From Leptolyngbyaceae cyanobacterium (GTDB lineage Bacteria; Cyanobacteriota; Cyanobacteriia; Phormidesmidales; Phormidesmidaceae): a stretch of DNA of 64,000 bases. The stretch covers positions 38,312-102,311 of the forward strand of contig CBDHHL010000014.1 of assembly GCA_965263355.1 (NCBI GenBank). The letters run 5' to 3'. The position numbers were made by a program, and so were the translations under genes. Shown here piece by piece: positions 1,636-57,688 of this stretch; positions within the stretch are counted from its first letter, which is position 1, and every line of letters begins with the position of its first letter. The notes under the pieces are model-generated. The model was not told the DNA's origin. It made no database searches and worked only from the letters and a program-made list of their open reading frames with translations.

Positions 1636-1818
1636 ATGACACCTATTTTCTTGAATTCGAATTCAATTAAGCTCATGGCTGAATGCCGTGATGCTGCTGA
1701 AAGAATCGTCTACAGACTGGATGAATGCGACATCGCAAATCGCACCAAAGAAAAAGATCAACAGGTGCATGAAGTGATGTTGGCTTTATTCAACGCGCAA
1801 ATCAACAAAAACAAATAA
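1636..1818 (+). CDS. Hypothetical protein
   Basis: ATG preceded by GGAAGGA RBS; 60 aa. Confidence 0.5.
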   Translation: MTPIFLNSNSIKLMAECRDAAERIVYRLDECDIANRTKEKDQQVHEVMLALFNAQINKNK

Positions 1819-2355
1819 TTCACAGCAACCGCCCACGATCGCACCGTCTGACCGAATACAAAGCCAGTCGCCACCACTGCCGACAAACCAGAATAAGTCT
1901 TTTTTAAGAAACCTGCATTGCCTGATTATCCTGTGGCGATGCAGGTTACTTTTTGCGATTACCTGTGGCATTTGAAAATTTCGCTTTCTTGCCAGTGGAG
2001 TGATTGACCCAAAAATAACGGCTGAACAAGTCCCAGCCCCCGATAATAAAACCATCCTGTAAAATTCCATCATCTGAATAAGCAGGCTTGCCTAGTTCAG
2101 CCAAAGCCCATGTGTTGATAGATTTTTGAGCTGGAATACTGATACGCCGATCCCGGCGAAGAACTTCGTTGGCCTTATTCAATGCGATCGCTTTTGCTAA
2201 TTGATTAAACATCAGTAGTAGTTAATGCACGACTGTTAAAGCATTCACAATTTTGACCGCAACATCCGGATTTGTATTTTGCATGACAATCATTACCAGT
2301 GCCAAAATTAAAAAACTAGGCTAATATCCAAGCAAAGCCGTCAATTACTATTTGG

Positions 2356-3615
2356 ATGCAATCAGTAGTTTTCTGGAATGGTTTTATGAAGGGTGCGAGT
2401 GAGATCGTGCCCCATCTCCCACCCGGCAAAGATATTTACGCTTTTGCCGAAGTCCAAGCAGGCGAAGATATAAGTTGGCTCGAAGAACTTCATAAGCTTT
2501 CCGGCAGGCACTATGAAGCATTTACCCAGCCATATCGCAACCAAGCACTGGCGATATATGTTGCCGACACAGTTAAAGTTTTAGAGCATAGAGAACTCAA
2601 TAACGTTAACTGCGACGGTAAAGGCAGAGCCAGTATTGCACTGCACTTAAAGCCTGAAGTTGGAGACGATTTCTGGATTGTTGTTGTTCACTTGCGTCGC
2701 CGCAATCGAATGGCAAGGGCTTGTGAGGCGGTCAGACTTAGAAATTGGATGCTGACTAAGCCGCGAGTGGTTGCAATTGGCGACTTTAATTTAGATATTG
2801 AGAGCAGGGAAGGCGGCAGTCGTGACCCTGCTTTTTACAAGCTTGTTGGAGGGGATATTGATTGGATTCGTCCCCAAAATAGAGAGCAGCCCACGCATTG
2901 TTCCCGGCATAGATCGTTATTGGATCTAGTTTTTGTGCGTGGGTTGCAGGGGACTGCACAAACCAGCGATATCCCGTGTAACAAGGCCAAAAATCCATCA
3001 GATCATCGGTGGATCGAGTTTAACCTAGAAGGTAAGAACATGGGCAAAACTAAAAATTATGGTGGTGGTTATTCTACTCACCAGCGTATTGGCAACCTTG
3101 AAAATATGTTCGGTGAGCTTCGAGATATTCTTGAAGACTTTAAGCAAAAACCAAGTGAACAAAAGAGTGAACCAGGGTTCGACTGGAAAGAACTTCCCTT
3201 GTTAGCTTGGCTATATGTTCAAGCTGCTTTTGGCGCAGCGATTAAAATTATCCAGTCTATCGCCGTTGCAGCGCTTGAACTAGGCCGCACAGTTGCCAGC
3301 ATTTTAGGTTTCACGGTTTTCTTATTGGCTGGATTGTTCGTTCTAATCACAGGAAGCAAGTACGTTCAATATGGCCTAGGACGTTTAGGGATTATTAACC
3401 ATGCAGACTCAGACCAACCAGACCCGCCAAACTATGCAGCCGAAACCGCAGGAGATGCGACTGCTGCTGTTGTTGAATGGACTACTGGGCTTGGTGTTTA
3501 TGGCAGTGACCGCGATCGTAGTCGAACAGCTGGGAACGATGAAAACGCAAGCTCAGGAATGGCTGAGGAACCGCGTAATGTCGAAATCTCAGGACTAAAA
3601 GAAGATCTTTCCTAA
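2356..3615 (+). CDS. Endonuclease/exonuclease/phosphatase (EEP) family protein fused to a C-terminal membrane domain
   Basis: WN, AEVQ, VVHL, GDFN, LDLVFV and SDH motifs in aa 1-225; hydrophobic helices follow. Confidence 0.8.
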   Translation: MQSVVFWNGFMKGASEIVPHLPPGKDIYAFAEVQAGEDISWLEELHKLSGRHYEAFTQPYRNQALAIYVADTVKVLEHRELNNVNCDGKGRASIALHLKPEVGDDFWIVVVHLRRRNRMARACEAVRLRNWMLTKPRVVAIGDFNLDIESREGGSRDPAFYKLVGGDIDWIRPQNREQPTHCSRHRSLLDLVFVRGLQGTAQTSDIPCNKAKNPSDHRWIEFNLEGKNMGKTKNYGGGYSTHQRIGNLENMFGELRDILEDFKQKPSEQKSEPGFDWKELPLLAWLYVQAAFGAAIKIIQSIAVAALELGRTVASILGFTVFLLAGLFVLITGSKYVQYGLGRLGIINHADSDQPDPPNYAAETAGDATAAVVEWTTGLGVYGSDRDRSRTAGNDENASSGMAEEPRNVEISGLKEDLS

Positions 3616-3678
3616 GTTTTACCAGGGAGTCTAGATCATGGCTTGCTATTCTTATGAGTAGCAAGCTTTTTTTTTGCC

Positions 3679-3969
3679 ATGAAATACCGAATAATACAAA
3701 AAGGAAATAGAGAATACAGAATTCAAATAAGATCTACCTGGATAGTTTTCATTAAACTTTTCTTTACAATTTTTACTGGTGGGTTTGCTTGGATTGCTTG
3801 GTGCTTAGCAAGCGATACAGGGTTTTTAGAGTTTTGGGAACCCTACGAAGACTTAGAAACCGCTGAAGATTACGAGCAAGCATATGAGAGGTTGCTCTAT
3901 ATTCGTGAGTTTCAAAACAACGAGATGCGGGTTAGACAAGCAAGGTATTTTGATTCCAATGAGCCATAA
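3679..3969 (+). CDS. Hypothetical membrane protein
   Basis: 96-aa ORF with one hydrophobic segment. Confidence 0.5.
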   Translation: MKYRIIQKGNREYRIQIRSTWIVFIKLFFTIFTGGFAWIAWCLASDTGFLEFWEPYEDLETAEDYEQAYERLLYIREFQNNEMRVRQARYFDSNEP

Positions 3970-4014
3970 TTGTATTGGTTCGCTACTCCTGAATGTTGTC
4001 TCTCTTTTAAGAGC

Positions 4015-4509
4015 ATGAAGAAATTTCTTTCACTTATTCCGTTAGCTTGTTTAGGCATTGCGTATGCCGCATCAAATGCCAGAGCTGCAGTAATAACACA
4101 AGCGACGGCTACCTTCGATTGCTATTACGTTGGATTTGACACTGTTGGGTCTTTAGAGATCAGAACCGACTATCCACTGGGCCACATCGCCCGCGCAGAA
4201 GCAATTGTTAATTTCAAATTCTTTGATGATCCGCCTGTCAATATTTCAATCGGAGACGAAAGTTCAACTGTCTTTTTCCGTCGAAACTATGTCAGTTTAG
4301 ATATCCCCCTCGAAGGTGACGAGCCACTAGATAGAGCACAGGAAGCAGAGCTTGTTTATTCTCGTATATCTGGCATTGGCCGTGATGATCTTGGATTCCC
4401 AACAGTCTATCAAGATATCCCTCTAACTCCATTTGGCTATGTCGGTGGTGTTGTCGAAAAATGCCATGAATTAGGCCAATTACCCAAAGCAAAAAATAAG
4501 TGTTCGTAG
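4015..4509 (+). CDS. Secreted hypothetical protein
   Basis: Signal peptide MKKFLSLIPLACLGIAYAASNARA; ATG 4015 is the likelier start than 3970. Confidence 0.55.
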   Translation: MKKFLSLIPLACLGIAYAASNARAAVITQATATFDCYYVGFDTVGSLEIRTDYPLGHIARAEAIVNFKFFDDPPVNISIGDESSTVFFRRNYVSLDIPLEGDEPLDRAQEAELVYSRISGIGRDDLGFPTVYQDIPLTPFGYVGGVVEKCHELGQLPKAKNKCS

Positions 4510-4517
4510 GTGGAATC

Positions 4518-5708
4518 ATGAAGAAGAGATATTTTTTAAGCGCGATCGCTTTATTAGGCTTAGGTGCTCCGGTTGCAGTGAGTCAGGTTTGCGACCAATT
4601 TACATTGACTGGGCCAAACTCAGGGGTTCAAGTGTTGGGTGACCTATGCCCTGATGGGTCCATCCAAAATGGACAAGTATTGAAGCCAGACGGCTCTAAC
4701 ATGGCAGCTGGTGAGACCATTACTTACACCGGCCCTGGTGGAGTGGCTAGTACATCAACTCATGATACGACGCCCAGCCTGCCAAGGCATTGGGAAGAGC
4801 TTGCAGGCTTCCCGCCCCCGTCAGTATCTGAGCTTTCGTTTGGAACGCCAACTCATGATCAGATTATTGGCCATGGGGATCTGAATGAATCCGTTTTCGG
4901 TGAGACCATCTTTTTTAGAAAAGACAATGTTCTTTTCGCTCAAATCCTTGAAGATGTAGTTCTTCCTCAGCCCACTGGGGGTCTTACTGACGGCGTTTAC
5001 GTTGTCAACGATATCGGCCATGGCAGTATCGCGGCTTTTTTCAATGGCGCGCTATCCTCAGATACCCAGATTAAGGGTTTTGGAGGTGAGTTCAGTGACC
5101 TGATCTCAACCTGGACCCCTAGTTCTGGTAGCCTGACGTATCACGAATTAGGAGTTACCAGCAATAAGTGGATTGCAAATTCAGATACTACGCAATCACT
5201 AGGAACTGTCCTTCGAAAGAATGGCAGAGAAGTAAACTCAATTGACCTTGATGCAATCGGATTTGTCGGCTCAGACTTTTATCTTTTTTCTGAGTCTGAT
5301 AAATACTTGGTTGTAGTTGATGACAACTACAATGTTGAGCGCATCTCGACGATTCCAGGCAAGTACTTTAATGGCCCTGGTACATTCACGGCCATCATTC
5401 AAGGTGACTTTGATTCTGACGGTCAAGCAAACGATTTTGCATCTGTGTTCAGAATCACCACTAGTGGCAACTCAAAGTACAGGTTTGAGATGTTCGAATA
5501 TGATTTATCCTCTAATTCGTATTCGAATATTGCAGACATCACAACTGACCTACTGTCAGGTGCCCCCCATCCTGAAGATTCACTGTCGGGCTATGGCAAT
5601 AGCATTGCTTTGTCCCGTCGCCGCAATGACGGTAACCAGCGGATGTACTACTGGAAAGTGGATGCCGTTGGTGGTAGCGTCTACTCAAGAAACTATCCAA
5701 CGAACTAA
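4518..5708 (+). CDS. Secreted beta-rich protein
   Basis: Signal peptide MKKRYFLSAIALLGLGAPVAVS after GGTGGA RBS; contains a GDFDSDG FG-GAP-like motif. Confidence 0.55.
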   Translation: MKKRYFLSAIALLGLGAPVAVSQVCDQFTLTGPNSGVQVLGDLCPDGSIQNGQVLKPDGSNMAAGETITYTGPGGVASTSTHDTTPSLPRHWEELAGFPPPSVSELSFGTPTHDQIIGHGDLNESVFGETIFFRKDNVLFAQILEDVVLPQPTGGLTDGVYVVNDIGHGSIAAFFNGALSSDTQIKGFGGEFSDLISTWTPSSGSLTYHELGVTSNKWIANSDTTQSLGTVLRKNGREVNSIDLDAIGFVGSDFYLFSESDKYLVVVDDNYNVERISTIPGKYFNGPGTFTAIIQGDFDSDGQANDFASVFRITTSGNSKYRFEMFEYDLSSNSYSNIADITTDLLSGAPHPEDSLSGYGNSIALSRRRNDGNQRMYYWKVDAVGGSVYSRNYPTN

Positions 5709-5711
5709 ATA

Positions 5712-6905
5712 ATGATTTTCAAAGCCTACATCGGGCTTTTTGCTTTGTTGTCTACACTCTGCAATCCGTGGGGCACAGACGACGAAGCAATTTTTTTATG
5801 GCCCAAACTTGTAATTCTGTTCTTGATTGCTGCATTAAATCAGTATTCAATCACTAAAGCTAACTCTCGAATTATCTGGCACTGGATAATCGGCTGGTTC
5901 CCCTGGTTGGCATGTGCATCAATTTCAACTTGGTTCGCGATAGTGCCTCATTACAGTGTCCTTGGTTACTACGGAAAAGCTTGCGGGCTTCTTTGGTGGA
6001 TAACCGTGGCTGTGTTTTTTTTGTTTAACAGACTAATCCTTAAAGAACGACCCGAACTATTCCAAGCTCAACTAACGGGTTTCCATATTGGAGGGGTAAT
6101 TAATGCAGCCGCTGGCCTCACTCAATGGGTACTTCACTTTTTTGGCATCGGGTTTGAACAGTATCCCATGCATGGGCTGTTCGGAAACTTTGGCGCATAT
6201 GCCGGGTTTATGCTGATGTGCTGCGCCGTTGCTGCTCAGTACAAAGCCAATAAATGGCTATTGGTTCTTTATACGATTGCCACACTGAATACTGGCGTGA
6301 GAATAGCCATGCTGGGGGCCGTTATTTGCAACTTGGTAGCTATTGGCTGGAAGCGAAGTATCCCCATAGTGCTATCGGCACTGGTCTTTATTGGACTTGT
6401 TACAAACAATAAGCAAGTTGGGGAGACAGCATCGCCCCATACTCCAGTGATGGCGCAGATCAGACGGATCAGTTCAAATCGAACCTACTATTGGGCTAGG
6501 GCATTCAGATATGCTCAGCGATCGCCTTTGATTGGCTACGGGTTCAATGGCTTGAATCTTCAAAAAGCGTTTCGTCAATGCCGCGAAGTGGGCATACTTC
6601 AATATTCGCGGTGGTCGTATCAATGCTCGGACGGCGCTTTCCCTGATGAAGATACTAAGCATTCGTATAATATTTGGCTCGACAGGCTAATAGAAACAGG
6701 CTTCCTAGGCTTGCTAGCTTATGGCTGGCTATGGGCTTGGTTGCTCTGGACTATTCGCGGTAGGGTGCTTTTGGTGTGGTCTATTTTTTTGCTGTGGTCT
6801 ATTTTTTGGTACGACGCAGCCGCATTTAGTTGGATAATATTTTGGATTTTTAGCAATGGCGAATCTTTCAGACGTTCCAAACGAACGGCAAGAACTAGCC
6901 CTTAA
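5712..6905 (+). CDS. O-antigen ligase-like (Wzy_C) polytopic membrane glycosyltransferase
   Basis: Many TM helices, GLFGN, R-x-x-x-W...SPLIGYG and YNIWLDRLIETGFLGL motifs. Confidence 0.75.
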   Translation: MIFKAYIGLFALLSTLCNPWGTDDEAIFLWPKLVILFLIAALNQYSITKANSRIIWHWIIGWFPWLACASISTWFAIVPHYSVLGYYGKACGLLWWITVAVFFLFNRLILKERPELFQAQLTGFHIGGVINAAAGLTQWVLHFFGIGFEQYPMHGLFGNFGAYAGFMLMCCAVAAQYKANKWLLVLYTIATLNTGVRIAMLGAVICNLVAIGWKRSIPIVLSALVFIGLVTNNKQVGETASPHTPVMAQIRRISSNRTYYWARAFRYAQRSPLIGYGFNGLNLQKAFRQCREVGILQYSRWSYQCSDGAFPDEDTKHSYNIWLDRLIETGFLGLLAYGWLWAWLLWTIRGRVLLVWSIFLLWSIFWYDAAAFSWIIFWIFSNGESFRRSKRTARTSP

Positions 6906-10529: not shown

Positions 10530-13178
10530 TTACCCCCAAACTGCAAAACTAACTTTTTGGATATTTGGATTTGCCCCAGCTCCTGACCTTGACTCTCGCC
10601 AAACCCTCAATGTTGTTGTACTAACTGATTGAGCGCCATGAGAATAATTAATAGAAGCCCCTGACGATGGATCAGCGCTCGCGATCGCGATAAAGTCAGC
10701 TGATGACATTGCCGATGCCAACGTAACTAACCATCGACCCGTTGCCTCCCTAGTAATGCCACCAGCGTTAACCCCGTCTAGGAATAACTCAGTGATGGTC
10801 GTTCCATCGTCAGTAAATACGCCTGATGCAATAGCCGTTAAGCCTGTAGCGTTTGCATCGACAGCAACTGGGTTATCTTGAATTGCTGGTAAGTTTTCAG
10901 TGTTGGTTGCGGCTTCGGCAACTGACGGGTTGTCTTGAATTGCTGGTAAGTTTTCAGTGTCGCTAACCGGGATAGGCGAATTATCAACAGCGACTGGATT
11001 GTCTTGAATTGCTGGTAAGTCTTCAGCATTACTAACCGGTGTTGGTGCCGTACTTGTAGCGACCGGATTATCTTGAATTGCTGGCAATTCTTCTGCATTG
11101 CTAGCAACGCCACTATCTGCAGCCGCTACCGGGTTATCTTGAATCGCTGGCAAGTCTTCAATGATATTAATCGGGACTGATATTTCTATTGGAGGGGTTA
11201 TTACATCCGGAGTAACCCCAACCTGACCAATCAACCCAAAATTACAACCAAATAAAGTCTCAGTTAAATTTGACGAGATGCTAAAACCGTTCAAAAAATA
11301 AGCTTCAATATTTCCATCGACAGTCACATCAACCCTCGATACCGGGTCAAACGCAGTAAATAATTCTGTCGGGATTGCTCCAATAAATGAACGGCCCAGG
11401 CTCAATCCGTGTTGCCATTTCGCGGCCCATTCTGCTAGATCATTGCATTGAATATCGCTCACAATTACGTCAGCATTAACCCGGATTGCTCCCTCTTTCC
11501 ATTTGTGGGCATTCCCAGAGATTGGCTGGACCGTAACTGACCCCGTAAATTCTTGGTGTTCCTCTGTGTAAATGCTTTCCTGATATTCAATATCTGGTGG
11601 CCTCGTTGAACCGTCACTGGCCTGCAAGGTGAAGGTCAGATCAGGATCTGGATTGTTCACCAGGGTCTCAGGATTGGCCCCCGTATAATTTTTGAAGATT
11701 ACGCCCCTAGGCTGCTGAGTAACTTGCTCAACACGCCACGCCTCAATGGCAGGATCTCCACTAACGTCCAGTACTCTAGTCCAGGTAGTCGTTTGAATTG
11801 AATAATCACGCTCTAAAAAGCGATTTAATTCATAGTTGGTAGGTGTTTTTTCGCCCCATTCCCAGAGGCACCATGGCCGACGTTCTGTGATAGTTCTCGA
11901 GCTGACTACGCCTAAAATATTGTCGTAAGTGTAGGTCGTGGTCGTTCGACTGTTGTCAAGTAGTGTCAGTGCCGAGCTATTTTCTTCCTCACTAAACGCA
12001 TCGCCACCACTAAGCCCCCGTGCTTTGCGAATTAGCTCAACTGTTTCAGTCAGTCGTTTAGTAATTCCGTTATATCGATGGGTAATCGAGCTGTCTTCAG
12101 AATCCTGCAGACCATTGTTCGTATTGTCAGTATCTGTCAATAGAGTCGGCACAACGCCAGAGTTATCCGTAGTGATAACCCTAGGCTGTATCTGTAATTC
12201 AGCTTGGCGTTCTACATACGTAATTACTGTCTGAGGTGCGCCCCCAACTGGCGTTATCGTTTTAGTCTCAGTGCTAGTCAGAGACGTATAGCCTGGACCG
12301 GGCACAGTACGAACGATTACGCTAGGATTTTCAATCTCTTGAGCAAGGTCGGAACCGCCCGTTACTGTTAATTCCCCCGGCGGTCGTTCTTCAAGATTGA
12401 CGGGTTCCCATCCGTTCTCGCCAACTTCGTCTCCTCCAATGCCGATAGTTAGGCTAAAATCTGGTGCTGTTTTGAGTGTAAAGTCAGCTGAAGTAAGTTT
12501 TAATTCTTCAGCAGCATCAAGCCAAACAACATACTTTTGAGCTGCTGCTATTTCCCCAATCTCACGCACTGTTGACCGGGTAGATTTTTTCTGGACAGCT
12601 GTATTGACTGAATAACCGCCCGCGATCGTATCTGACGATGTTGGGATGCCTATCTGAGTCGCGATATTACGAATTAACGTTGTGGGCGTTGTGGTTGTTC
12701 CCTGGGTAATTCCTGAATAATTATTCTCTGGGGTAAATAAGTCTAGTGATTTCCCAAGATCCCCTAAGTCAATCGTAATCTGGGCTTGGGATTCACTTGT
12801 GGGAATTTCTATCCTAGGGGATGCTTCCCTCAAGATATAAAACGGTGGCCAAAATCTTTCAAAAGCTGCCCCCGTCCACATGCTCAGTGTAATCCGGTTT
12901 CCCATGGCCAACACTTCAGCCCCCGACGGGTTAGAGGCAGTATCGCGGTTATCAAGACTAACTGTTGTGGACAATTCTGGACTTAATACAATGCTGCCTT
13001 CCCATGCCAGCCAACCGTTTAGCCTATTTCCCGATCTCAGTTCGGAAAAATCGATATCGACGCTAATCAAAGCGTCAGAAATATCATGCGGGCCACTGAT
13101 TACAGCCCGATTAGCGTCTAAAATTTCGAGGCTTGCTGTCCAGTCCCTATCTTGAGCGTCAATAGTGAAAGAGGTCAT
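10530..13178 (-). CDS. Large tail tip/baseplate hub-like protein with internal repeats
   Basis: Second gene after the tape measure; T/S-rich beta composition; five LPAIQDNP repeats. Confidence 0.6.
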   Translation of the reverse strand: MTSFTIDAQDRDWTASLEILDANRAVISGPHDISDALISVDIDFSELRSGNRLNGWLAWEGSIVLSPELSTTVSLDNRDTASNPSGAEVLAMGNRITLSMWTGAAFERFWPPFYILREASPRIEIPTSESQAQITIDLGDLGKSLDLFTPENNYSGITQGTTTTPTTLIRNIATQIGIPTSSDTIAGGYSVNTAVQKKSTRSTVREIGEIAAAQKYVVWLDAAEELKLTSADFTLKTAPDFSLTIGIGGDEVGENGWEPVNLEERPPGELTVTGGSDLAQEIENPSVIVRTVPGPGYTSLTSTETKTITPVGGAPQTVITYVERQAELQIQPRVITTDNSGVVPTLLTDTDNTNNGLQDSEDSSITHRYNGITKRLTETVELIRKARGLSGGDAFSEEENSSALTLLDNSRTTTTYTYDNILGVVSSRTITERRPWCLWEWGEKTPTNYELNRFLERDYSIQTTTWTRVLDVSGDPAIEAWRVEQVTQQPRGVIFKNYTGANPETLVNNPDPDLTFTLQASDGSTRPPDIEYQESIYTEEHQEFTGSVTVQPISGNAHKWKEGAIRVNADVIVSDIQCNDLAEWAAKWQHGLSLGRSFIGAIPTELFTAFDPVSRVDVTVDGNIEAYFLNGFSISSNLTETLFGCNFGLIGQVGVTPDVITPPIEISVPINIIEDLPAIQDNPVAAADSGVASNAEELPAIQDNPVATSTAPTPVSNAEDLPAIQDNPVAVDNSPIPVSDTENLPAIQDNPSVAEAATNTENLPAIQDNPVAVDANATGLTAIASGVFTDDGTTITELFLDGVNAGGITREATGRWLVTLASAMSSADFIAIASADPSSGASINYSHGAQSVSTTTLRVWRESRSGAGANPNIQKVSFAVWG
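10860..11165 (-). repeat. Five intragenic repeats E(D/E/N)LPAIQDNP
   Basis: A TCTTGAAT(T/C)GCTGG core recurs five times. Confidence 0.85.
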
Positions 13179-21085: not shown

Positions 21086-22456
21086 CTACCCCACCGTGTA
21101 GACGGATGGGGTTTCAACACTCCCCATCTTGCGGTGAGATTTCTGTCTCTTCGCCTGTCCCAGTTGCTTCATTCCTCCCGTATGTTTACGGTTTTCAGAA
21201 GTAGAGCTGAGACATCCAAGACTAACGAGGCTGAAATTTCCTAACCCCGGTTGATTGTTGGTCGCAACGTTGTACATCACCACAACTGAGCCACGGTCAC
21301 GGGGGATCTCAAAGCCGCATCCATCGCAGATGTGATAGCGGTTACTGAGTTCTGCCCAGTGTTTATGCACCTTGCCGCAGTTGGGGCAGCGTTGCGAAGG
21401 TTTGACCTTTTTGGTCGGCAAAAACAGGACTAAGCCCCCTTTTTGCTCAATCTTGTACGTCACCATTTTGTTGATGGTGCCAAAGCCAACAGATAGGATC
21501 TCGCGGTTGAGTCCAGCTTTCTGGCGTTTCCGCTTACTCCCCTTTTTGGCCTTTCGGGTCATCCCTTTAGTGTTGAGCTTTTCGGTAACGCCGATGTCAT
21601 AACGACTTGCAATGTCTGACGTTACCTTGTGCTGCCAGTCCTTACGCTGACGGGCAGCCTTAGCCTTCAACTTAGCCTCACGTCGATTCGCCTTCTTCCA
21701 TCGACGTGAGGCTTTTTGACCCTTTACAGGGTTACGCTTTCGGCGTTTAGTCTTAGCGACTTTCCGAACTTTTTTATTTGTCTCTCTACTAAACCTGGGA
21801 TTCTCCAGCTCGGCAAACTCCGAACCGTCAAACAGGGTCAGGGCTGTTTCTGTTCCCAGATCATAGGCAACCATCGACTCATACGCCAAGTCAGACTCAG
21901 ATCCAAATTGAACGACCGGATCTGCAACGTTGACCGTAATCGAGGCATACCAGGCTTTTTGACCAGGCTTGTAAATAATGGTGCATGTTGTCGGCACACC
22001 CCATTGCTTAGCCTTGCCGCGCATCTTGATCTTGATGCCCAACAGCTCTAAATACCCGTGTGTACCTTCAGTGTGGGCAATCCAGCCAGACTTAGCCGGA
22101 TAGGTCCACCCTGAGTACTTACGAATCGACTTGAACTTAGGCAAACCGCCTAAGCCTTTGAAAAACCGCTGATAAGCAAAATCAACACGCTTAAGTGTTG
22201 CCTGGATAGCTTGAGAGCCTAACGCCTTGAACTCTGGCCATTCAACCTTGAAGTCTGGCAAACAGTTCTGTTGAGCAAAGTAGTCAACAGAGATCCCCCA
22301 TTGCTTCCACATTGTTTTTCGCTCAGACACGGCAGCATTGTACAGATAGCAATGCAATCGACGTGCATCAAACAAAGCCCGCTCTTGAGCCTTGTTTGGA
22401 TACAGTCGAAATGTCTGCCGCCTTACTGCCATAAATAAATAGAGCGCAAAAAACAA
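21086..22456 (-). CDS. tnpB: RNA-guided endonuclease TnpB
   Basis: FRLYPN N-terminus, RuvC YDLG / TEKL / RD and CPNC-CDGC zinc finger; likely start ATG 22432. Confidence 0.92.
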   Translation of the reverse strand: MFFALYLFMAVRRQTFRLYPNKAQERALFDARRLHCYLYNAAVSERKTMWKQWGISVDYFAQQNCLPDFKVEWPEFKALGSQAIQATLKRVDFAYQRFFKGLGGLPKFKSIRKYSGWTYPAKSGWIAHTEGTHGYLELLGIKIKMRGKAKQWGVPTTCTIIYKPGQKAWYASITVNVADPVVQFGSESDLAYESMVAYDLGTETALTLFDGSEFAELENPRFSRETNKKVRKVAKTKRRKRNPVKGQKASRRWKKANRREAKLKAKAARQRKDWQHKVTSDIASRYDIGVTEKLNTKGMTRKAKKGSKRKRQKAGLNREILSVGFGTINKMVTYKIEQKGGLVLFLPTKKVKPSQRCPNCGKVHKHWAELSNRYHICDGCGFEIPRDRGSVVVMYNVATNNQPGLGNFSLVSLGCLSSTSENRKHTGGMKQLGQAKRQKSHRKMGSVETPSVYTVG

Positions 22457-22530
22457 AATCAGTTGATAGTTGCTGATACAGCTAAGTTAACATAGAATCA
22501 GGGGAATGAGTAGAAATCAGTAAAAGTGCT

Positions 22531-22950
22531 ATGAAATCTGGCTCACATGTCGTTTATGACATTCACCTGCATATTGTGTTTATCACTAAATATCGTCGCC
22601 AAGTGCTTACACAGCCCATGCTTGAGAGGATGTCTGAGGTTGTTAAGCGTGTCTTGGAGTCTAACCGGTGTGAGCTATCAGAGCTGAACGGGGAACCGGA
22701 TCATGTCCATCTGCTGGTGGACATGCACCCGGATAACAACATTTCTAATCTGGTCTCATCCCTGAAATCGGCTACCAGCCGCATTCTTAGAAAGGATTTC
22801 AAGGATGAAATAGACAAAGTTTATTGGGGCAAGGCCAAGCTGTGGCACGATGCAAAATGCATTGTCAGCTGTGGCGGTGCCCCCCTAGAAAAAGTCAAAC
22901 AGTACATTCAGGAACAAAGCGGCGGGAGAGTGCCTAGCTCTACTTCGTGA
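22531..22950 (+). CDS. tnpA: IS200/IS605 Y1 (HUH) transposase
   Basis: HIVFITKYRR, DHVHLL HUH motif and YIQEQ catalytic Tyr. Confidence 0.95.
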   Translation: MKSGSHVVYDIHLHIVFITKYRRQVLTQPMLERMSEVVKRVLESNRCELSELNGEPDHVHLLVDMHPDNNISNLVSSLKSATSRILRKDFKDEIDKVYWGKAKLWHDAKCIVSCGGAPLEKVKQYIQEQSGGRVPSSTS

Positions 22951-24987: not shown

Positions 24988-26269
24988 CCTGCTTCATAAA
25001 ACCTATACAAACCTAGACATCTAGGATTAGTTGTTTACTAAACGCTTCAACTACAGGCGTCGGCGCTACTGTATCCACGTTTCTTAAAGAACTCAAGCCG
25101 AGTCCTATTTTCAGAATATTTAGAGCTGCATTAAAATCTCTGTCCAGCTTTGAACCGCAATTTTTACAGTCAAATATTCTATCCTTTAGAGTTAAATCTT
25201 CTTTTTTCCATCCGCATTGAGAACATGTTTTTGAACTTGGTTCCCAGCGCGAAATAAAGACCAATTCAGACTCATAAAGCTTGCATTTGTATTCAAGTTG
25301 GCGTCTGAATTCATGCCACCCCATCAAACTAATGGCACCTGCTAATTTATGATTTGCCATCATGCCTTTAATATTCAAATCTTCTAGGCATATGACAGAA
25401 AAGTTTTTAGCTAAATAGGTTGTTGATTTATGCAAAAAATCAAGCCTTATGCACTTTGCTTTATAGTGCAATTTTTGAATTTTTTGCATAGCTTTTTGCC
25501 ATCGGGTGGAACCTTTTGTTTTGTTCCTGGCTACGTATTGAAGCTTAGCTATTTTTGCCTTGATCCTTTTGTATTCAGTTATTGGAGCTTCTAAGATTTC
25601 ACCATTAGACAATGTTCCAAAAGTTTTTAGCCCTAAGTCGATCCCTACAGCAAGCTTGGTTTTTGCTTGTTGAATAGGTTCAACTTCTAGCCGAAAACTA
25701 ACAAACCATTTTGAACCGTCCCTAGAGATAGTTGCATTTTTAGGCTTAAACCCATTTGGCAGTTCTTCAAACGTTTTTACCCAACCAATGCGTGGTAACT
25801 TTATGGCTTTTTGCTGGCATGAAATACTGCCATCTAAGGTGAACGTATCACGGCATTTTCCTTTTTTCTTGAATTTTGGTGGACCTGAAATTTTCTTGAA
25901 ACACCTATCCCATGAGACACGTAAAGATCGTATAGCGTTTTGATGAGCAGCTTTACTGCATTCGTAATACCAAGGATTAGCCTTTTTGATTTCTCTACAA
26001 TGCCATTTATTTAGGTCAATTGCAGACGGGAATTTAACTTTTTGATCTGACTCTCCCAGCGACTTAGCTAATCTGTTGATATCTAAAATTAACTTTGTAT
26101 GGGCTAAAGCATGGTTCCAAGCATGACGAGCAATGCCACAATGCTTTTTGAAAGCTGTGATTTGCTTGTTGTTTGGTTTTAATTCAGTCTTAAATCCAAT
26201 CAGCATTGTGAACATTCTGTATAGATTTGTCTAGCTTTTCTCAGGTTTTAGGCTTCTAGAATTTCCTCC
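24988..26269 (-). mobile_element. Non-autonomous IS607-like tnpB element
   Basis: GG at both junctions; short TGT(A/C)TAG-type repeats at both ends in inverted arrangement; no transposase gene. Confidence 0.7.
25013..26215 (-). CDS. tnpB: RNA-guided endonuclease TnpB (IS607-type)
   Basis: GFKTELKPNNKQ, GIDLGLK, LEDL, CSQC/CKNC and DRDFNAA motifs. Confidence 0.92.
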   Translation of the reverse strand: MFTMLIGFKTELKPNNKQITAFKKHCGIARHAWNHALAHTKLILDINRLAKSLGESDQKVKFPSAIDLNKWHCREIKKANPWYYECSKAAHQNAIRSLRVSWDRCFKKISGPPKFKKKGKCRDTFTLDGSISCQQKAIKLPRIGWVKTFEELPNGFKPKNATISRDGSKWFVSFRLEVEPIQQAKTKLAVGIDLGLKTFGTLSNGEILEAPITEYKRIKAKIAKLQYVARNKTKGSTRWQKAMQKIQKLHYKAKCIRLDFLHKSTTYLAKNFSVICLEDLNIKGMMANHKLAGAISLMGWHEFRRQLEYKCKLYESELVFISRWEPSSKTCSQCGWKKEDLTLKDRIFDCKNCGSKLDRDFNAALNILKIGLGLSSLRNVDTVAPTPVVEAFSKQLILDV

Positions 26270-29784: not shown

Positions 29785-29961
29785 ATGAAAAGCAATCCAC
29801 GCAATGCAGGCGCTAAGCCATTGGGAGACGAGCCCAGGCAACGGACTAACGTCATGTTAGACCCTGCGTTAAAGGCTAGGGCAAGCAATAAGGCCAATGA
29901 TCTGGGGACAAGCCTTAGTCAGTTGATTAATGACGCGATCGCTGCCTACCTATCGCACTAA
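29785..29961 (+). CDS. Ribbon-helix-helix (CopG-like) regulator, 58 aa, not in the ORF track
   Basis: MKSNPRNAGAKPLGDEPRQRTNVMLDPALKARASNKANDLGTSLSQLINDAIAAYLSH. Confidence 0.75.
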   Translation: MKSNPRNAGAKPLGDEPRQRTNVMLDPALKARASNKANDLGTSLSQLINDAIAAYLSH

Positions 29962-52997: not shown

Positions 52998-54155
52998 ATG
53001 AAATACATCATCGAGACATCAGATCAATTTCAAAATGCACTCAAAGTTGCTGAGGCAAGCGATCGTATCCTGCTAAAGTCTGGCGTTTATCAACATGAAG
53101 AATACAACACTTCATGGGAAACACGGACCCGTGGAAATGCTTTTTTTGCTAGTGGGCTAAAAGGAACAGCCGAAGCTCCAATTAGGATAATGCCGTTTGG
53201 GGATGGCCCTGTGACTATACTTTCTGACGTGAATGGTTTAGCGATAAAAGATTCTAAGTATATTATTATCGAGGGCATAGAGTTTATAGGGCCGAACTCA
53301 AAGCTGAGTACTGAGCAAGCTTTAGAGGTCTGGTGGAACGAAAACCCTATAATGATAACGGGCAGAGGAATTGCCTTAAATCGTTGCAGCAATATCGATA
53401 TAACAAGATGCCGAGTGCATCATTTCCCAGGGGCGGGAATATCCAGCAAGCACGGTTACGATATCAGCATTTACGATAACGCTATCTATAACAATTGCTG
53501 GTTCTCAATATCAGGATCGCATGGTATCGCGAATAGCGAGCCTAAAGGGCCTAGCGGATCTTCAATGAAGATCTACCGTAACCTGGTTTTTGGGAACCAA
53601 TGCTGTGTTATATCAAGGGTATTTTCCAAGGGTTATGTCACTTTGGCGTTAGACGAAGGCAACGGTATTCACTTTCAGAATGATGAAAAGATTTATAGGG
53701 GCGGGCTGCTGATAAAAGAGAACATTAGCGTGTTTAACGGGAAGGCAGGAATAGGCCTTAACAGAGTGTCGACACATCAGCTAGACTCAGCCATCATAAA
53801 AGATAATCTGCTAGCCGGTAACTGCATAACAACAGACTCAGGACAGCTCAGTGAGCGAGAAAGTCAAGTCTCTTTTATCCGGAACATATTGGGCGGTGAA
53901 CCCTACGTTAAGAGCATAGGGTTCTCTACAAGCGATTACGCTAGCAATATAGAGGCACCCGAGTTCGCTAGTCTATCGGATTTACTTCCTCCCGAAGGGG
54001 CAGAACTTAGAGAGACTTATACTAATATCTTGTCTCAGTTTAGTATGTTCGTTGCGCCCTGCGACCAGGAGATAAACTTGGAAAGCATGATAAAAAAGAT
54101 AAAAGATACTCAGCCAGCGGATATGGCGCATATAGAGTTTATAGAGCATTGCTAA
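52998..54155 (+). CDS. Right-handed parallel beta-helix (pectin-lyase-like) protein
   Basis: D.ILLKSG.Y, GTAEAPI.I, YIIIEGIEF, GI/N-ladder repeats and DEGNGI. Confidence 0.75.
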   Translation: MKYIIETSDQFQNALKVAEASDRILLKSGVYQHEEYNTSWETRTRGNAFFASGLKGTAEAPIRIMPFGDGPVTILSDVNGLAIKDSKYIIIEGIEFIGPNSKLSTEQALEVWWNENPIMITGRGIALNRCSNIDITRCRVHHFPGAGISSKHGYDISIYDNAIYNNCWFSISGSHGIANSEPKGPSGSSMKIYRNLVFGNQCCVISRVFSKGYVTLALDEGNGIHFQNDEKIYRGGLLIKENISVFNGKAGIGLNRVSTHQLDSAIIKDNLLAGNCITTDSGQLSERESQVSFIRNILGGEPYVKSIGFSTSDYASNIEAPEFASLSDLLPPEGAELRETYTNILSQFSMFVAPCDQEINLESMIKKIKDTQPADMAHIEFIEHC

Positions 54156-54342
54156 GTTTCAGTCCCTTAACAGGGATTAAAGCTTTAGCAGCCTTCATCT
54201 AAGGCCATGGTTGCGAAGCACTTAGAGAAGTTTCAGTCCCTGTTAAGGGATTAAAGCTTTAGCAGCTAGGGTTCTCTACAAGCGATTACGCTAGCAATAT
54301 CAAGAGTTTCAGTCCCTGTTAAGGGATTAAAGCTTTAGCAGC
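54156..54342 (-). CRISPR. CRISPR mini-array: three 37-nt repeats and two spacers (37 and 39 nt)
   Basis: Repeats at 54156-54192, 54230-54266 and 54306-54342. Minus-strand consensus GCTGCTAAAGCTTTAATCCCTTAACAGGGACTGAAAC has an internal hairpin and a GAAAC end. Confidence 0.92.
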
Positions 54343-54662
54343 TGCATAAGCTGCATCCCTTTAGCAGCAAGGCTTTATGAGCGATTCTGGCAAAGCTCAG
54401 AAAATGGCAATCCTGCCAAAGCTTTAATCTCTGTTTTTCAAGGTTGTTTTTTAGCATCGCTTAGCTTTGCCAAAAAAAGATGAGACTGTTCGCCATAGAT
54501 CCGGCGAATCTATAAGGGCCTTACGGACTCCTTTTGCTCCTATCTTGCCTTTCGGCTGGTGTTTGCCAGTTTCCCAGCAAAAGATGCCCATAGCCCCCTA
54601 AAGAGCCTTAGCGCTGAAGCCATCCAACAACGTTTCCGCTGCCTTGTCGCCCAAACTGCGAT
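54343..54662 (-). ncRNA. Putative leader/tracrRNA-like RNA containing an anti-repeat
   Basis: 54413-54432 matches the repeat at 18/20 in inverted orientation; leftward promoter at 54698-54669; no long ORF. Confidence 0.5.
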
Positions 54663-54668
54663 GTCCTT

Positions 54669-54698
54669 ATATTAGCGTGCTATGATTTTGTACGTCAA
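54669..54698. promoter_or_regulatory. Overlapping divergent promoters
   Basis: Minus strand TTGACG-N18-TAATAT; plus strand TGC-TATGAT extended -10 at 54678-54686. Confidence 0.55.
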
Positions 54699-54714
54699 GC
54701 ATTTTTTAATATAA

Positions 54715-54891
54715 ATGGGGAAAGAGAATAGAGAAGGCAGGATTTACGCCCGCATCAAGCAAAGTCGCAAACAAAAGCTAGAGCAATATTGTAAGCTTTG
54801 GAATATATCGATCGCTGACCTATTGGAACGCTTTATTGATATGCTGCCAGAACTCCCGAAAATAGACGCACAAAACAATGAAGACAATTAA
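54715..54891 (+). CDS. Ribbon-helix-helix regulator, 58 aa, not in the ORF track
   Basis: MGKENREGRIYARIKQSRKQKLEQYCKLWNISIADLLERFIDMLP...; overlaps the nuclease start. Confidence 0.75.
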   Translation: MGKENREGRIYARIKQSRKQKLEQYCKLWNISIADLLERFIDMLPELPKIDAQNNEDN

Positions 54892-56611
54892 AGTAAAAGT
54901 TCAGCCAACTCCGGAGACGCTAATTAAATACGAGAAAATTTGCAGAGAACTTGAATGGCTATGGAACTATGTAAGGGCCGTAGCCTTACATAATCATTGC
55001 CTTGAATGGTATGCGTGGGCCGAGGGGAAAGGCGCTAACTTGTCAGGCTGCATTAAAACGCCGCTACGCTTTTCAAAGAATGGCGGATGGATTGGAGCAG
55101 CTTGTCAGATTGCTAAAGGAGGGCCATATTTTAAGAAGTCAGATAAAGCTCCTTTGATTCACTATGACGATGGCAAAACGAAACAAGGCTATGAATTAGT
55201 GGCTGGGGATAAGCCATATGAGCCAATAAAGCCAGAGCGTCATAGATATCGCGAAGTCTCTTATTCCAGTAAAGGTACCTCAATAACCCGTTCCAGTAAA
55301 AGCACCTCAATAACCCGCGAGCTAAAAGGAAAAGGTTGGGGCCTAGACAATATGGCGTTACTAAATGCGTCACGAAGTTCTCAGGGTCTTGATGAATTAA
55401 CTTGCCATAGCGATTTTGTTGGAGGGCTACTAGCTGACTTTGAAGTTGCCTGGGATGCGTATTTAAACACAAAACTGCCTGCCAGAAAGCAGCCAAAGTA
55501 TAAGGACGGCAAGCAACGTAAAATTAGCACGTTGAACAATAATCAAAAAACTATCCCGTTCAAAAAAGGACAATTCAACGGTCAAGGCTTAGTTTTAGAG
55601 CCGTGCGATCGCAGCTATAAAAAAAGGCTTGAAGGCTACGTAACAAAAACTTATAAGTTGACATTAAAGCCGAGCGGCTTCTATTTATGCTTAATTGCTC
55701 AAAGTGAAGCGGAAGAAGAGAATAGATTAAAACTCAAACAGCAAGGAAAAGCTTTAAGTTCTATCAAGAAAAAAATTCTTGATAGCATTAAAGGGAAGAA
55801 AGAACAAACTAAGGCATTAGCTAACAGTGAAGAATATCAAGCGGCATTAGCCAAGAAAAAGTCAATAGAGAATGAGTTGCCATACTTGCTAATAGAAGAC
55901 TCAAAATGCGCTAAACGAACCGGGCATATGGCGGGCATTGACCCTGGGATTAAGGCAATTGTAGCGACTGACGAAGGTCATTTATTTAATCCTAACGAAA
56001 GCCGAGAACGCATACAAAATCATATTGAAAAGCTGCAATCTAAGCTTGACATTATGACTGAAAAAAATGATAAGCGGCTAGACCAAATATGGAAGCGTGG
56101 GCAGCGTGAAGCCACTAATAACGAGCAAAAACTTAGAGATAAAATATCCAGGCTGCATGAACGAGCTGCTAATAGTTCAAACGCGTTTAATCATAAGTTA
56201 TCAACCAGGTTAGCAAGAACTTATGATGTCATCGCCTGGGAGGCTACGGCGTTAACTAACATGGGGAGACAGACAACGCCTAAATTAGCTGAAGATGGAA
56301 GTTGTTACGAGCAAAACGGCAGAGCAGCCAAGGCAGGATTGAACAGATCTTTGAAAACAGCTTGCATGGGTGACCTTAGAGCTAAGACAAAATCTAAATT
56401 AAAGGAAGCCGGGAAAACGTATGCAGAAACCGAAGCTAGATACTCCTCCCAACGCTGTCATTGTTGTGGGGGAAAAGGCATTAGGCCGACTCAAGACACG
56501 TTTATTTGTTTGAATGAACAATGTGATTTATTCAATGAGAAACAAAACGCAGATACTAACGCTGCTAAAAATCACAAGAACAATGGCTTGAAGATGCTTA
56601 AGGTTGGTTGA
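54878..56611 (+). CDS. CRISPR-associated TnpB-derived type V effector (Cas12/C2c8-like), 577 aa
   Basis: RuvC-I GIDPG, RuvC-II AWE, CHCC...C...C zinc finger and RuvC-III NADTNAAKN; adjacent to the array, no tnpA. Confidence 0.8.
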   Translation: MKTIKVKVQPTPETLIKYEKICRELEWLWNYVRAVALHNHCLEWYAWAEGKGANLSGCIKTPLRFSKNGGWIGAACQIAKGGPYFKKSDKAPLIHYDDGKTKQGYELVAGDKPYEPIKPERHRYREVSYSSKGTSITRSSKSTSITRELKGKGWGLDNMALLNASRSSQGLDELTCHSDFVGGLLADFEVAWDAYLNTKLPARKQPKYKDGKQRKISTLNNNQKTIPFKKGQFNGQGLVLEPCDRSYKKRLEGYVTKTYKLTLKPSGFYLCLIAQSEAEEENRLKLKQQGKALSSIKKKILDSIKGKKEQTKALANSEEYQAALAKKKSIENELPYLLIEDSKCAKRTGHMAGIDPGIKAIVATDEGHLFNPNESRERIQNHIEKLQSKLDIMTEKNDKRLDQIWKRGQREATNNEQKLRDKISRLHERAANSSNAFNHKLSTRLARTYDVIAWEATALTNMGRQTTPKLAEDGSCYEQNGRAAKAGLNRSLKTACMGDLRAKTKSKLKEAGKTYAETEARYSSQRCHCCGGKGIRPTQDTFICLNEQCDLFNEKQNADTNAAKNHKNNGLKMLKVG

Positions 56612-56700
56612 GCATCAGCGGAAATGCTATGATTGGCAGCAGCTGACAATATTGGAACTATTGGCAGCTGCTTAACCACAAACTTAACGGAAGTAAGTAC

Positions 56701-57426
56701 ATGGCTAATACAGATATTACCGCATTCAATTGCGATGGAGAATTAGTAGTTGATTCTAGGCTGATTGCAGAACGGCTAGGAATTGATCATTCTAATTTCT
56801 TAGAAACTATCGAAAAGCACAGAACCATTGCTACGCAGGCGTTTGGAATTTTCAGGTTTGAAACGGAGAAATTAAATGGGCCGGGACGACGCCCCAAATA
56901 CTGCCTACTCAACGAAGATCAAGCGACCTTCGTTATGACATTGAGTCGCAATACGCCAGATGTCGTAAAATGCAAAGTCGAACTAATACAAGCATTTTCA
57001 AAAGCTAAAGCTGCGCTCAAAGCTTTAGTTCAGCCTACTGAAAATTTAGCAATTGAAGCATGGGTTCTTGACCATCCTCAGCAATGGGAAGAGCACTTTT
57101 TCCCAGAATGGAGGGCTGAAGCTGAGCGATTAACCGGATGGCGCTGGAGCTACCGTTGTATGTCAGGCTTCATCAATAAAGCTGTTTACGATTGGATGCC
57201 TAAAGCTGTTCTAGACAGGCTGAATGAAGTAAACCCGCAAGATACCAAAGGACGTAGAAAGTCAAAGCAACATCAGTACCTGACAGATGACGCTGATACT
57301 CAGGTCTTAAAAGACTATATTCGCACGTCATACGAACTAATGATTGTATGTGGAGAAAAGACAGAGTTTCTTCGACTTATCCGCAATCGACATACAAAAG
57401 TAATTCAGCCCTGGTTATTTGCCTGA
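56701..57426 (+). CDS. Rha-family N-terminal plus P63C-like C-terminal phage regulatory protein
   Basis: VDSRLIAE...LNEDQATFVM...K.ELI.AF and W...F...VYD.MP...HQYLT motifs. Confidence 0.75.
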   Translation: MANTDITAFNCDGELVVDSRLIAERLGIDHSNFLETIEKHRTIATQAFGIFRFETEKLNGPGRRPKYCLLNEDQATFVMTLSRNTPDVVKCKVELIQAFSKAKAALKALVQPTENLAIEAWVLDHPQQWEEHFFPEWRAEAERLTGWRWSYRCMSGFINKAVYDWMPKAVLDRLNEVNPQDTKGRRKSKQHQYLTDDADTQVLKDYIRTSYELMIVCGEKTEFLRLIRNRHTKVIQPWLFA

Positions 57427-57454
57427 TTAAAAGAAACTCTCAACAATAAGGAAA

Positions 57455-57688
57455 ATGAATTTTTTCAACAACAAAAAAGAAACCCGACACTCTGCCGTGT
57501 CAAAACAACATTGTGACGACATGGCAAAAAGATACGGCTGGGAGCAACCTGAAGAAGACAAAGATCGCTACGAAAAAAGAAATTGTTCTATCTTGCCGAT
57601 AGACTGTATTTTCATAGGCGATTGCCAGTTCCCAGTCAGTTCAATGGATCAAAGTCAAGGCGATATACACAACGGAGAGGAGGAGTAA
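57455..57688 (+). CDS. Hypothetical protein
   Basis: AAGGA RBS; 77 aa. Confidence 0.55.
   Translation: MNFFNNKKETRHSAVSKQHCDDMAKRYGWEQPEEDKDRYEKRNCSILPIDCIFIGDCQFPVSSMDQSQGDIHNGEEE

Follow-up and report, generated by a model that had tools for sequence, protein, structure and literature searches.

The locus at positions 54156-56611 of a 64-kb stretch of cyanobacterial DNA (64,000 nt of contig CBDHHL010000014.1, from a Leptolyngbyaceae cyanobacterium; hereafter the window) raises the question of whether a compact, phage-borne CRISPR system represents a new kind of type V system or a form of one already known. An initial annotation, made from the sequence of the window, had recognized there a cassette of three 37-nt repeats, an anti-repeat RNA, a ribbon-helix-helix (RHH) regulator and a 577-amino-acid (aa) nuclease resembling TnpB and Cas12, and had pointed to the poorly characterised C2c8 family. 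The nuclease is a member of an already published family and founds no new type V subtype: it belongs to Cas12p, also called 'Cas12 hacker' (type V-P; PDB 9jfs and 9jg3; Wang et al., bioRxiv 10.1101/2025.01.20.633832). Taking identity and anatomy together, we consider it very likely that the protein belongs over its full length to Cas12p, in a sister clade of shorter members, with a trans-activating CRISPR RNA (tracrRNA) and an array encoded on the minus strand. A minimal type V system of phages has been published before, under the name Cas12p, with a journal version reportedly in Nat Microbiol in 2026, and the locus confirms a known kind.

The identification rests on homology over the length of the protein. 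In a phmmer search of all PDB chain sequences, the 577-aa nuclease matched the Cas12p chain 9jfs_A at E 2e-111, over query residues 1-56 and 49-570, and TnpB structures at 1e-5 or worse. The protein database yielded 37 clusters at E <= 1e-87, all of 476-632 aa, and 32 of these made up the family alignment; a single-protein scan of viral contigs gave no relatives, but an alignment-based scan did recover them. The alignment splits the family into a long form of ~620 aa, which includes the solved lineage, and a short form of 561-600 aa, which includes the window protein, ~37-41% identical to that lineage. In a tree obtained by quick search, the branch between the family and the TnpBs received 99 in the Shimodaira-Hasegawa-like approximate likelihood ratio test (SH-aLRT), the short clade, within which the window protein falls, 95 and the long clade 98. 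A profile search and a phylogeny had been put forward in the initial annotation as a check on its proposal; the phmmer match and the tree place the nuclease with Cas12p, apart from the TnpBs. The divergent 'hacker-2' of the preprint may already be of the short clade.

Common to Cas12p and the window protein, in addition to this full-length homology, are residues of several functional sites. The RuvC residues D355 (in GIDPG), E455 (AWE) and D559 (NADTNAA), which correspond to D378, E478 and D582 of the preprint's numbering, and the zinc-finger cysteines C527, C530, C544 and C549 are invariant in the 32 aligned sequences. The residues that read the protospacer-adjacent motif (PAM) are kept (D157, equivalent to D197, and N222/Q223, equivalent to N261/Q262 of Cas12p-1), as are those of the thioredoxin pocket (W44, Y45, W47, C76, equivalent to C127 of Cas12p-1, and I78). 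The short form differs in that it is without the ~45-residue insert bearing W102 and F105 of Cas12p-1 and without the C-terminal tail.

The RNA side of the locus agrees with that of the published family, whose members are phage-encoded, 500-700 aa long and associated with a 37-nt repeat, a tracrRNA and a GTN PAM, a GUUU in the tracrRNA pairing with the terminal AAAC of the repeat as a pseudoknot (10.1101/2025.01.20.633832). The window shares with it the 37-nt repeat, a predicted tracrRNA core and the pseudoknot motif. The tracrRNA cores of 11 relatives, with the window sequence excluded, served to build a covariance model, R1, and compensatory changes occur in 14 of its 23 predicted pairs. Its sole match in the 64-kb window is on the minus strand, at 54662-54482, with 51.4 bits and E 2.7e-11; it also matches those Cas12p loci whose sequence extends past the gene, but not a single one of the six control loci of TnpB/C2c8-like type. 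The 5' end of the window core, AUCGCAGUUUGG, holds GUUU, and the 3' end of the repeat, GAAAC, supplies the AAAC partner. By likeness to the published family, the tracrRNA would pair with the repeat through a long anti-repeat and this GUUU:AAAC pseudoknot, and the resulting ribonucleoprotein would read a 5'-GTN PAM and cut DNA. The 372-nt gap at 54343-54714, between the last repeat and the 58-aa open reading frame (ORF), which had been taken for some 370 nt of non-coding DNA, is thus occupied by the predicted tracrRNA gene and the array leader.

The repeats themselves were found where the initial annotation had put them: the beta-helix gene ends with a TAA stop at 54153-54155, and the first repeat begins at the next base, 54156. 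Their spacing is 74 and 76; two are perfect (54230-54266 and 54306-54342), and the degenerate one stands at the leader-distal end. The hairpin segment of this terminal repeat is the exact reverse complement of the segment in the other two, so that the stem is kept and the loop flipped, a change which looks like a small inversion at a quasi-palindrome. The anti-repeat, the 58-aa gene and the nuclease gene that overlaps it (by 14 nt) and carries the D/E/D residues were likewise present as described, and 89 nt separate the cas12p stop from the next gene. The repeats of relatives read ...TAATCCC-loop-GGGAYTGAAAC on the gene strand, which corresponds to the minus strand of the window (L001, L002 and L079 are similar); given this orientation and the R1 match on the minus strand, the tracrRNA and mini-array are placed on that strand, divergent from the ORF-cas12p operon, in the order promoter-like site, tracrRNA core, anti-repeat, leader, array. 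The opposite transcription of RNA module and nuclease gene had gone unmentioned in the initial annotation.

To judge from its sequence, the guide module is intact, yet inverted and upstream of cas12p, whereas the usual Cas12p arrangement is downstream and on the gene strand. The comparison drew on 24 related loci, taken from collections of viral, genome and metagenome sequences, several of them being a contig that was retrieved twice. An array is present in 18 of the 24, which bears out the expectation that homologues would be array-linked; five of the six array-less loci end at or shortly after the gene, and the sixth is L164. At the 12 loci checked, the array starts 258-338 nt past a conserved CGCAGTTTGG motif, downstream of the gene and on its strand. 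These arrays measure ~300 to 2,800 bp; for three of them the repeat copies were counted and number 10, 15 and 27. The layout recurs in the family, since L008, L012 and L165 have an additional module that is inverted and upstream. L008 (879-998 and 1-770) and L012 (1410-1529 and 797-1246) each have a pair of guide modules: one is downstream of cas12p, and the other lies upstream in inverted orientation, separated from cas12p by KilA-N and GIY-YIG genes. The window further differs from published Cas12p in a ~50-nt insertion in the tracrRNA core, in the small ORF that overlaps cas12p and in the two-spacer array.

The surrounding DNA is of phage type. Pfam was applied to 72 of the 86 ORFs called in the window and PHROGs alone to the remaining 14, and among the ORFs are genes for large terminase, portal, major head, tape measure, tail fibre and Rha; relatives of the nuclease sit on IMG/VR contigs. 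The locus thus shares with Cas12p its carriage by a phage, and also its want of adaptation genes, since Cas1, Cas2 and Cas4 gave zero matches among the 86 ORFs. The initial annotation was right on this last point, but a tnpA, which it had reported as not visible, is encoded at 22531-22950. Megablast of 53000-57500 against the phage collection gave zero matches, and no relatives of the beta-helix gene were found in viral contigs. The proposal of a compact RNA-guided type V system with tracrRNA and mini-array on phage-type DNA has support in the sequence, and the locus is best described as a real, apparently intact CRISPR system on a phage of filamentous cyanobacteria.

Host thioredoxin, which binds Cas12p at a pocket around C127, activates it (10.1101/2025.01.20.633832). 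We predicted the complex of residues 1-340 of the window nuclease with Nostoc thioredoxin 1 (THIO1_NOSS1) in three runs, with three controls, and obtained scores of 0.81, 0.80 and 0.01 (median 0.80; best control 0.00). Of 157 solved complexes, 116 reached the mark applied to such scores, as did 2 of 215 mismatched pairs. Agreement of contacts among the runs was at least 0%, the predicted local distance difference test (pLDDT) value of the partner was at least 84, and modelled C76 contacts the thioredoxin active-site residues 32-35. A like complex has already been solved, so that the prediction may reproduce a known structure, and it shows likeness, not binding. By likeness to the published family, the nuclease would need host thioredoxin at the pocket around C76; no thioredoxin gene was found in the window.

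The alternative that survives best is that the locus is decaying or has been repurposed: the usual downstream module would have been lost, the array would be a two-spacer remnant, and the effector, with a deletion in its thioredoxin subregion, would have lost cleavage or would only bind DNA, in which case such binding, directed by the spacer with a partial match, might modulate the beta-helix gene. We regard this as unlikely. It draws on the presence of only three repeats against the ~300 to 2,800 bp of relatives' arrays, on the lack of a tracrRNA or array in the 89 nt downstream of cas12p (the single R1 match in the window lies elsewhere), on the altered terminal repeat, on seed mismatches in the self-matching spacer described below and on the loss of an 11-aa stretch that is present in the 94% identical sibling P0001 and in the main population form. 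The small number of spacers and the missing 11-aa stretch, together with the lack of the W102/F105 segment of Cas12p-1 and the thioredoxin run that scored 0.01, speak against our preferred reading. However, the ORF is undisrupted and retains every catalytic, zinc-finger, PAM-reading and C76-pocket residue; six more short-clade members (P0002-P0006 and P0009) are likewise without the 11-aa stretch; the promoter, the tracrRNA core helices, the anti-repeat and two perfect repeats are intact; the inverted upstream module is also found in L008, L012 and L165; and different spacers are found in related arrays of the same samples. With Cas12 seeds, moreover, three mismatches in the first five positions would disfavour stable binding as much as cutting.

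The population data behind these comparisons are metagenome contigs from three runs (X1-X3) of one study, with at most two samples. At the position corresponding to 55028-55036 of the window, these contigs hold 33 additional letters that correspond to the 11-aa stretch of P0001, in the thioredoxin-binding subregion, and the window allele looks like a deletion between two KGA-coding repeats. A 27-nt tandem duplication in cas12p at 55264-55317, which yields SSKGTSITR/SSKSTSITR, is present in P0001 and absent from the 85% relative P0002.

An independent, uncharacterised type V subtype derived from TnpB, or a member of C2c8/V-U2, is in our judgement highly improbable. V_cas_c2c8 is indeed the top NCBIfam match (E 2.1e-49), Pfam shows TnpB-type domains only, and identity to the solved Cas12p lineage is as low as stated above. 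However, the C2c8 score is 168.9 bits against a cut-off of 350 and concerns residues 341-532 only, and canonical Cas12p proteins score alike, below threshold, on the same model. The V-U2 system of cyanophage vB_AphaS-CL131 (PMC6293099) resembles the window locus in having a TnpB-like RuvC effector beside an array and no adaptation genes, and the RuvC halves of the two nucleases are related. Its effector aligns to residues 352-576 only, with an unrelated N-terminal half, whereas Cas12p covers residues 1-570, and the tracrRNA core and pseudoknot motif are those of Cas12p. In the portion of their report considered here, the CL131 authors found no tracrRNA (PMC6293099), and the window locus has a predicted one. 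The full-length match to a solved Cas12p rules out the 'uncharacterised' status of the nuclease.

There is next to no probability that the gene encodes a common TnpB of the IS200/IS605 kind, with an omega RNA from its own 3' end, and that the nearby repeats are unrelated to it. TnpB models do match the C-terminal half of the protein, and elsewhere the window does contain a tnpA and two true TnpBs, but the IS200 TnpB model NF038281 gives 49.7, the cut-off being 425, a distance of 32 kb separates the locus from the nearest tnpA, the 89 nt that follow the stop hold no structured-RNA match (Rfam over 53900-56800 returned one weak, unrelated row only), 18 of the 24 family loci have arrays and the tree splits the family from TnpBs, so that model score, 3' flank, array linkage and tree together rule it out.

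If the locus is a working Cas12p system, its spacers may show what it is directed against. The 3' part of the adjoining beta-helix gene holds both natural protospacers identified in the window. The stretch 54267-54300 of spacer A is an exact 34-nt copy, missed in the initial annotation, of 53917-53950 in that gene; over the full site, 34 consecutive positions of 39 match, and the mismatches fall at guide positions 1, 4 and 5, that is, three within the first five PAM-proximal positions. In the metagenome contigs, a sister allele (53951 A>C, 53952 G>A) raises the match of spacer A to 38/39. The same contigs contain paired joints, 54192>53894 and 53926>54156, which are best read as a repeat-spacer-repeat contig with 53894-53926 as the spacer, and repeat-spacer-repeat contigs of X1-X3 hold at least five other spacers between the same repeats.

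Spacers of the relatives point in a similar direction. Among 130 unique spacers from 14 loci, five have credible targets in all the DNA fetched; all five targets are in other Cas12p-bearing phage contigs, and two of the spacers match cas12p genes. One of these (L169:7502) matches the cas12p gene of L012 perfectly (6445-6477), with a GTG flank; the other (L008:5397) matches the same gene at 6025-6060 and also its own gene, with an extra mismatch at position 6. L079 and L008 each have one spacer that matches their own contig with PAM-proximal mismatches. The flanks of the five targets are GTG (three times), TTG and ATA, and five of the seven natural flanks overall, with the GTG and GTA of the two window protospacers included, are GTN (binomial p 1.8e-5 at 1/16 per site). 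For a 5'-GTN PAM of the window nuclease, these flanks and the conserved PAM-reading residues give indirect support. Two weak rows of the spacer search (a low-complexity one in L009 and an 18-nt partial one in L079) were set aside as spurious. The part of the Cas12p preprint text used for comparison names no natural spacer targets (10.1101/2025.01.20.633832).

From these matches, spacer A would be directed at a co-circulating allele of the adjoining beta-helix gene, in a conflict between sister phages, and the phage's own copy, which differs at three of the first five PAM-proximal positions, may thereby be spared. On the sequences available, such a role in kin conflict has roughly even odds, and a number of points tell against it or against the reading of the locus as a whole. 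No allele seen fits spacer A perfectly, position 1 being mismatched in both; a single study, with two samples at most, supplied the population data and may be the window's own source; and sister contigs differ here at ~8% of sites (20/262), so that the polymorphism in PAM and seed may be due to chance. The shorter side of the paired joints measures only 29-33 letters at 85% likeness, none of the five other population spacers matches the window at up to three mismatches (0/5), and two of the seven natural flanks are not GTN. Spacer B has no second site in the window and no match in the phage collection or viral contigs, and the core of spacer A gave no match in viral contigs.

The pattern of these spacers resembles the virus-borne mini-arrays of Medvedeva et al. 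(2019; PMC6858448), which have one or two spacers and a leader, as the window phage does, and which have been described in interviral conflict. Those arrays depend on CRISPR components of the host, and the window phage would do so for adaptation. They belong to archaeal viruses, come without cas genes and use host effectors, whereas the window phage is a bacterial cyanophage that brings its own effector and tracrRNA (PMC6858448, in the part compared here).

The origin of new spacers was considered with a stand-in host, the Nostocaceae genome G001, which holds L079 and is not the window phage's own host. In G001 there is a complete type I-D locus; a further type I locus has a Cas1 that passes the I-D Cas1 model with 415 bits, and both loci have 37-nt repeats ending in GGGAYTGAAAC. 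A leader motif, TTTT-N8-TCTGCCAAAAY, occurs five times in G001 and not at all in controls; three of the five occurrences lie 64-65 nt ahead of a first repeat, those of two host arrays and of the Cas12p array, and the window leader has a close variant 62 nt ahead of its first repeat. The window locus also shares with cyanobacterial type I-D systems the 37-nt repeat with its 3' hairpin and ...TGAAAC end, and the predicted GTN PAM, that of type I-D being GTN/GTH (PMC10212523). It differs in having no genes for Cascade, Cas3, Cas6 or Cas1-2-4, and in the 5' half of the repeat, with which the phage tracrRNA pairs. Because leader, repeat and PAM match those of host arrays, spacers may be supplied by host I-D-class adaptation, and new ones would arrive in trans from the I-D-class Cas1-Cas2-Cas4 of the host. 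The initial annotation had suggested that the phage borrows the host's I-D machinery in this way, and this suggestion gains from the repeat length and 3' end, the leader motif and its spacing, and the GTN PAM; it remains conditional, and the fact that the leader and repeat comparison was made with another host's genome weighs on the other side. We place borrowed adaptation, too, at roughly an even chance.

Joined together, these parts give a reading to which we assign somewhat less than an even chance: sister cyanophages would fight by means of Cas12p arrays that tell kin from self, host I-D-class enzymes would refresh the arrays, and the short clade would be a distinct working form. In it, spacers may target sibling alleles of tail-region genes and even each other's cas12p genes, the phage's own copy may be shielded by a few PAM-proximal mismatches, and the flipped guide module under a small regulator may mark the short clade as a distinct form of Cas12p. 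Relative to the preprint text as used here, the present analysis adds natural targets of Cas12p spacers in sister phages, cas12p genes among them, flanks from nature that speak for the GTN PAM, a plausible supply of spacers through host I-D-class adaptation, and a clade of shorter proteins whose thioredoxin-binding region is trimmed and whose locus is laid out differently. Two questions become testable: how such a system avoids itself while cutting close kin, and whether dependence on thioredoxin extends across the family.

The small ORF upstream of cas12p is present, as the initial annotation had it, but the RHH fold that it was given was not confirmed. No Pfam model passes (the top one is RepB-RCR_reg, E 0.069), the monomer model (pLDDT 76) has three helices, and a fold search gave nothing at E <= 0.001, several of its weak rows being RHH proteins (CopG, ORF56, ParG, PutA and TacA1) aligned over ~30 residues at 0.7-1.0 A. 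The sole homologues found are close (90% identical), and one of them is on a contig equal in length to that which carries the 85% relative of the nuclease; a 51-aa ORF that occupies the corresponding place in L165 is weakly similar (E 1e-4, pairwise) and begins ~40 nt from the inverted tracrRNA; L079 has a TacA1/RHH-type ORF upstream of its cas12p. No shared operator was seen between the promoter regions of the window and L165. Given its position, the 58-aa protein may be a regulator acting on overlapping divergent promoters. The coordinates of all features are collected in Table 1.

Table 1. Features of the Cas12p locus and the adjoining beta-helix gene, in window coordinates.
Feature	Coordinates	Strand	Basis or remark
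Beta-helix gene, 385 aa	52998..54155	+	Pfam Beta_helix, E 7e-07; ends the tail-side module
Protospacer of population spacer (53894-53926) with 5' PAM GTA (53927-53929)	53894..53929	-	Spacer seen only in related metagenome arrays
Protospacer of spacer A (53917-53955) with 5' PAM GTG (53956-53958)	53917..53958	-	34/39 exact
Leader-distal repeat, 37 nt, variant	54156..54192	-	87% identical; hairpin segment reverse-complemented
Spacer B, 37 nt	54193..54229	-	No target found
Repeat, 37 nt	54230..54266	-	Ends in GGGACTGAAAC on the minus strand, as in relatives' repeats
Spacer A, 39 nt	54267..54305	-	Matches adjoining beta-helix gene
Leader-proximal repeat, 37 nt	54306..54342	-	Repeat search
Array leader	54343..54412	-	T-run and TTTGCCAGAAT motif, as in leaders of relatives and of host type I arrays
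Terminator-like hairpin	54418-54405	-	At array leader
Anti-repeat of tracrRNA, 23 nt	54413..54435	-	91% complementary; pairs with 5' part of repeat
tracrRNA core (predicted)	54482..54662	-	Covariance model R1, 51.4 bits, E 2.7e-11
Promoter-like TTGACG-18-TAATAT for tracrRNA	54669..54698	-	Aligned with TTGACA/TAATAT boxes of relatives
58-aa ORF, possibly RHH regulator	54715..54891	+	52 nt lie between its start and that of the tracrRNA, which is on the other strand
cas12p, short clade, 577 aa	54878..56611	+	RuvC D355/E455/D559; zinc finger C527, C530, C544, C549

Some further observations concern related elements in the window and beyond it. A separate 58-aa ORF at 29785-29961 has a weak match to RHH_1 (CopG; E 8.4e-4), just below the cut-off. 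An IS200/IS605-type pair spans 21086-22950 and consists of a 456-aa TnpB and a divergent Y1 tnpA (22531-22950), the latter, IS200-like, being ~32 kb from the Cas12p locus; a solo TnpB of 400 aa is found at 25013-26215. The lengths of these two TnpBs agree with the earlier observation that the Cas12p nuclease is some 120-180 aa longer than the TnpBs of the window. A k-mer scan detected a cluster of spaced repeats at 10876-11084, inside an 882-aa tail-fibre ORF (10530-13178), which is probably a coding repeat. Finally, an isolated cyanophage, Cylindrospermopsis raciborskii virus RM-2018a (L170; MH636380.1), encodes at 1798-5007 a 668-aa homologue with 33% identity that is annotated as a transposase; no array was found within the 7.8 kb examined, and two tracrRNA-like elements lie upstream of the gene on its strand.

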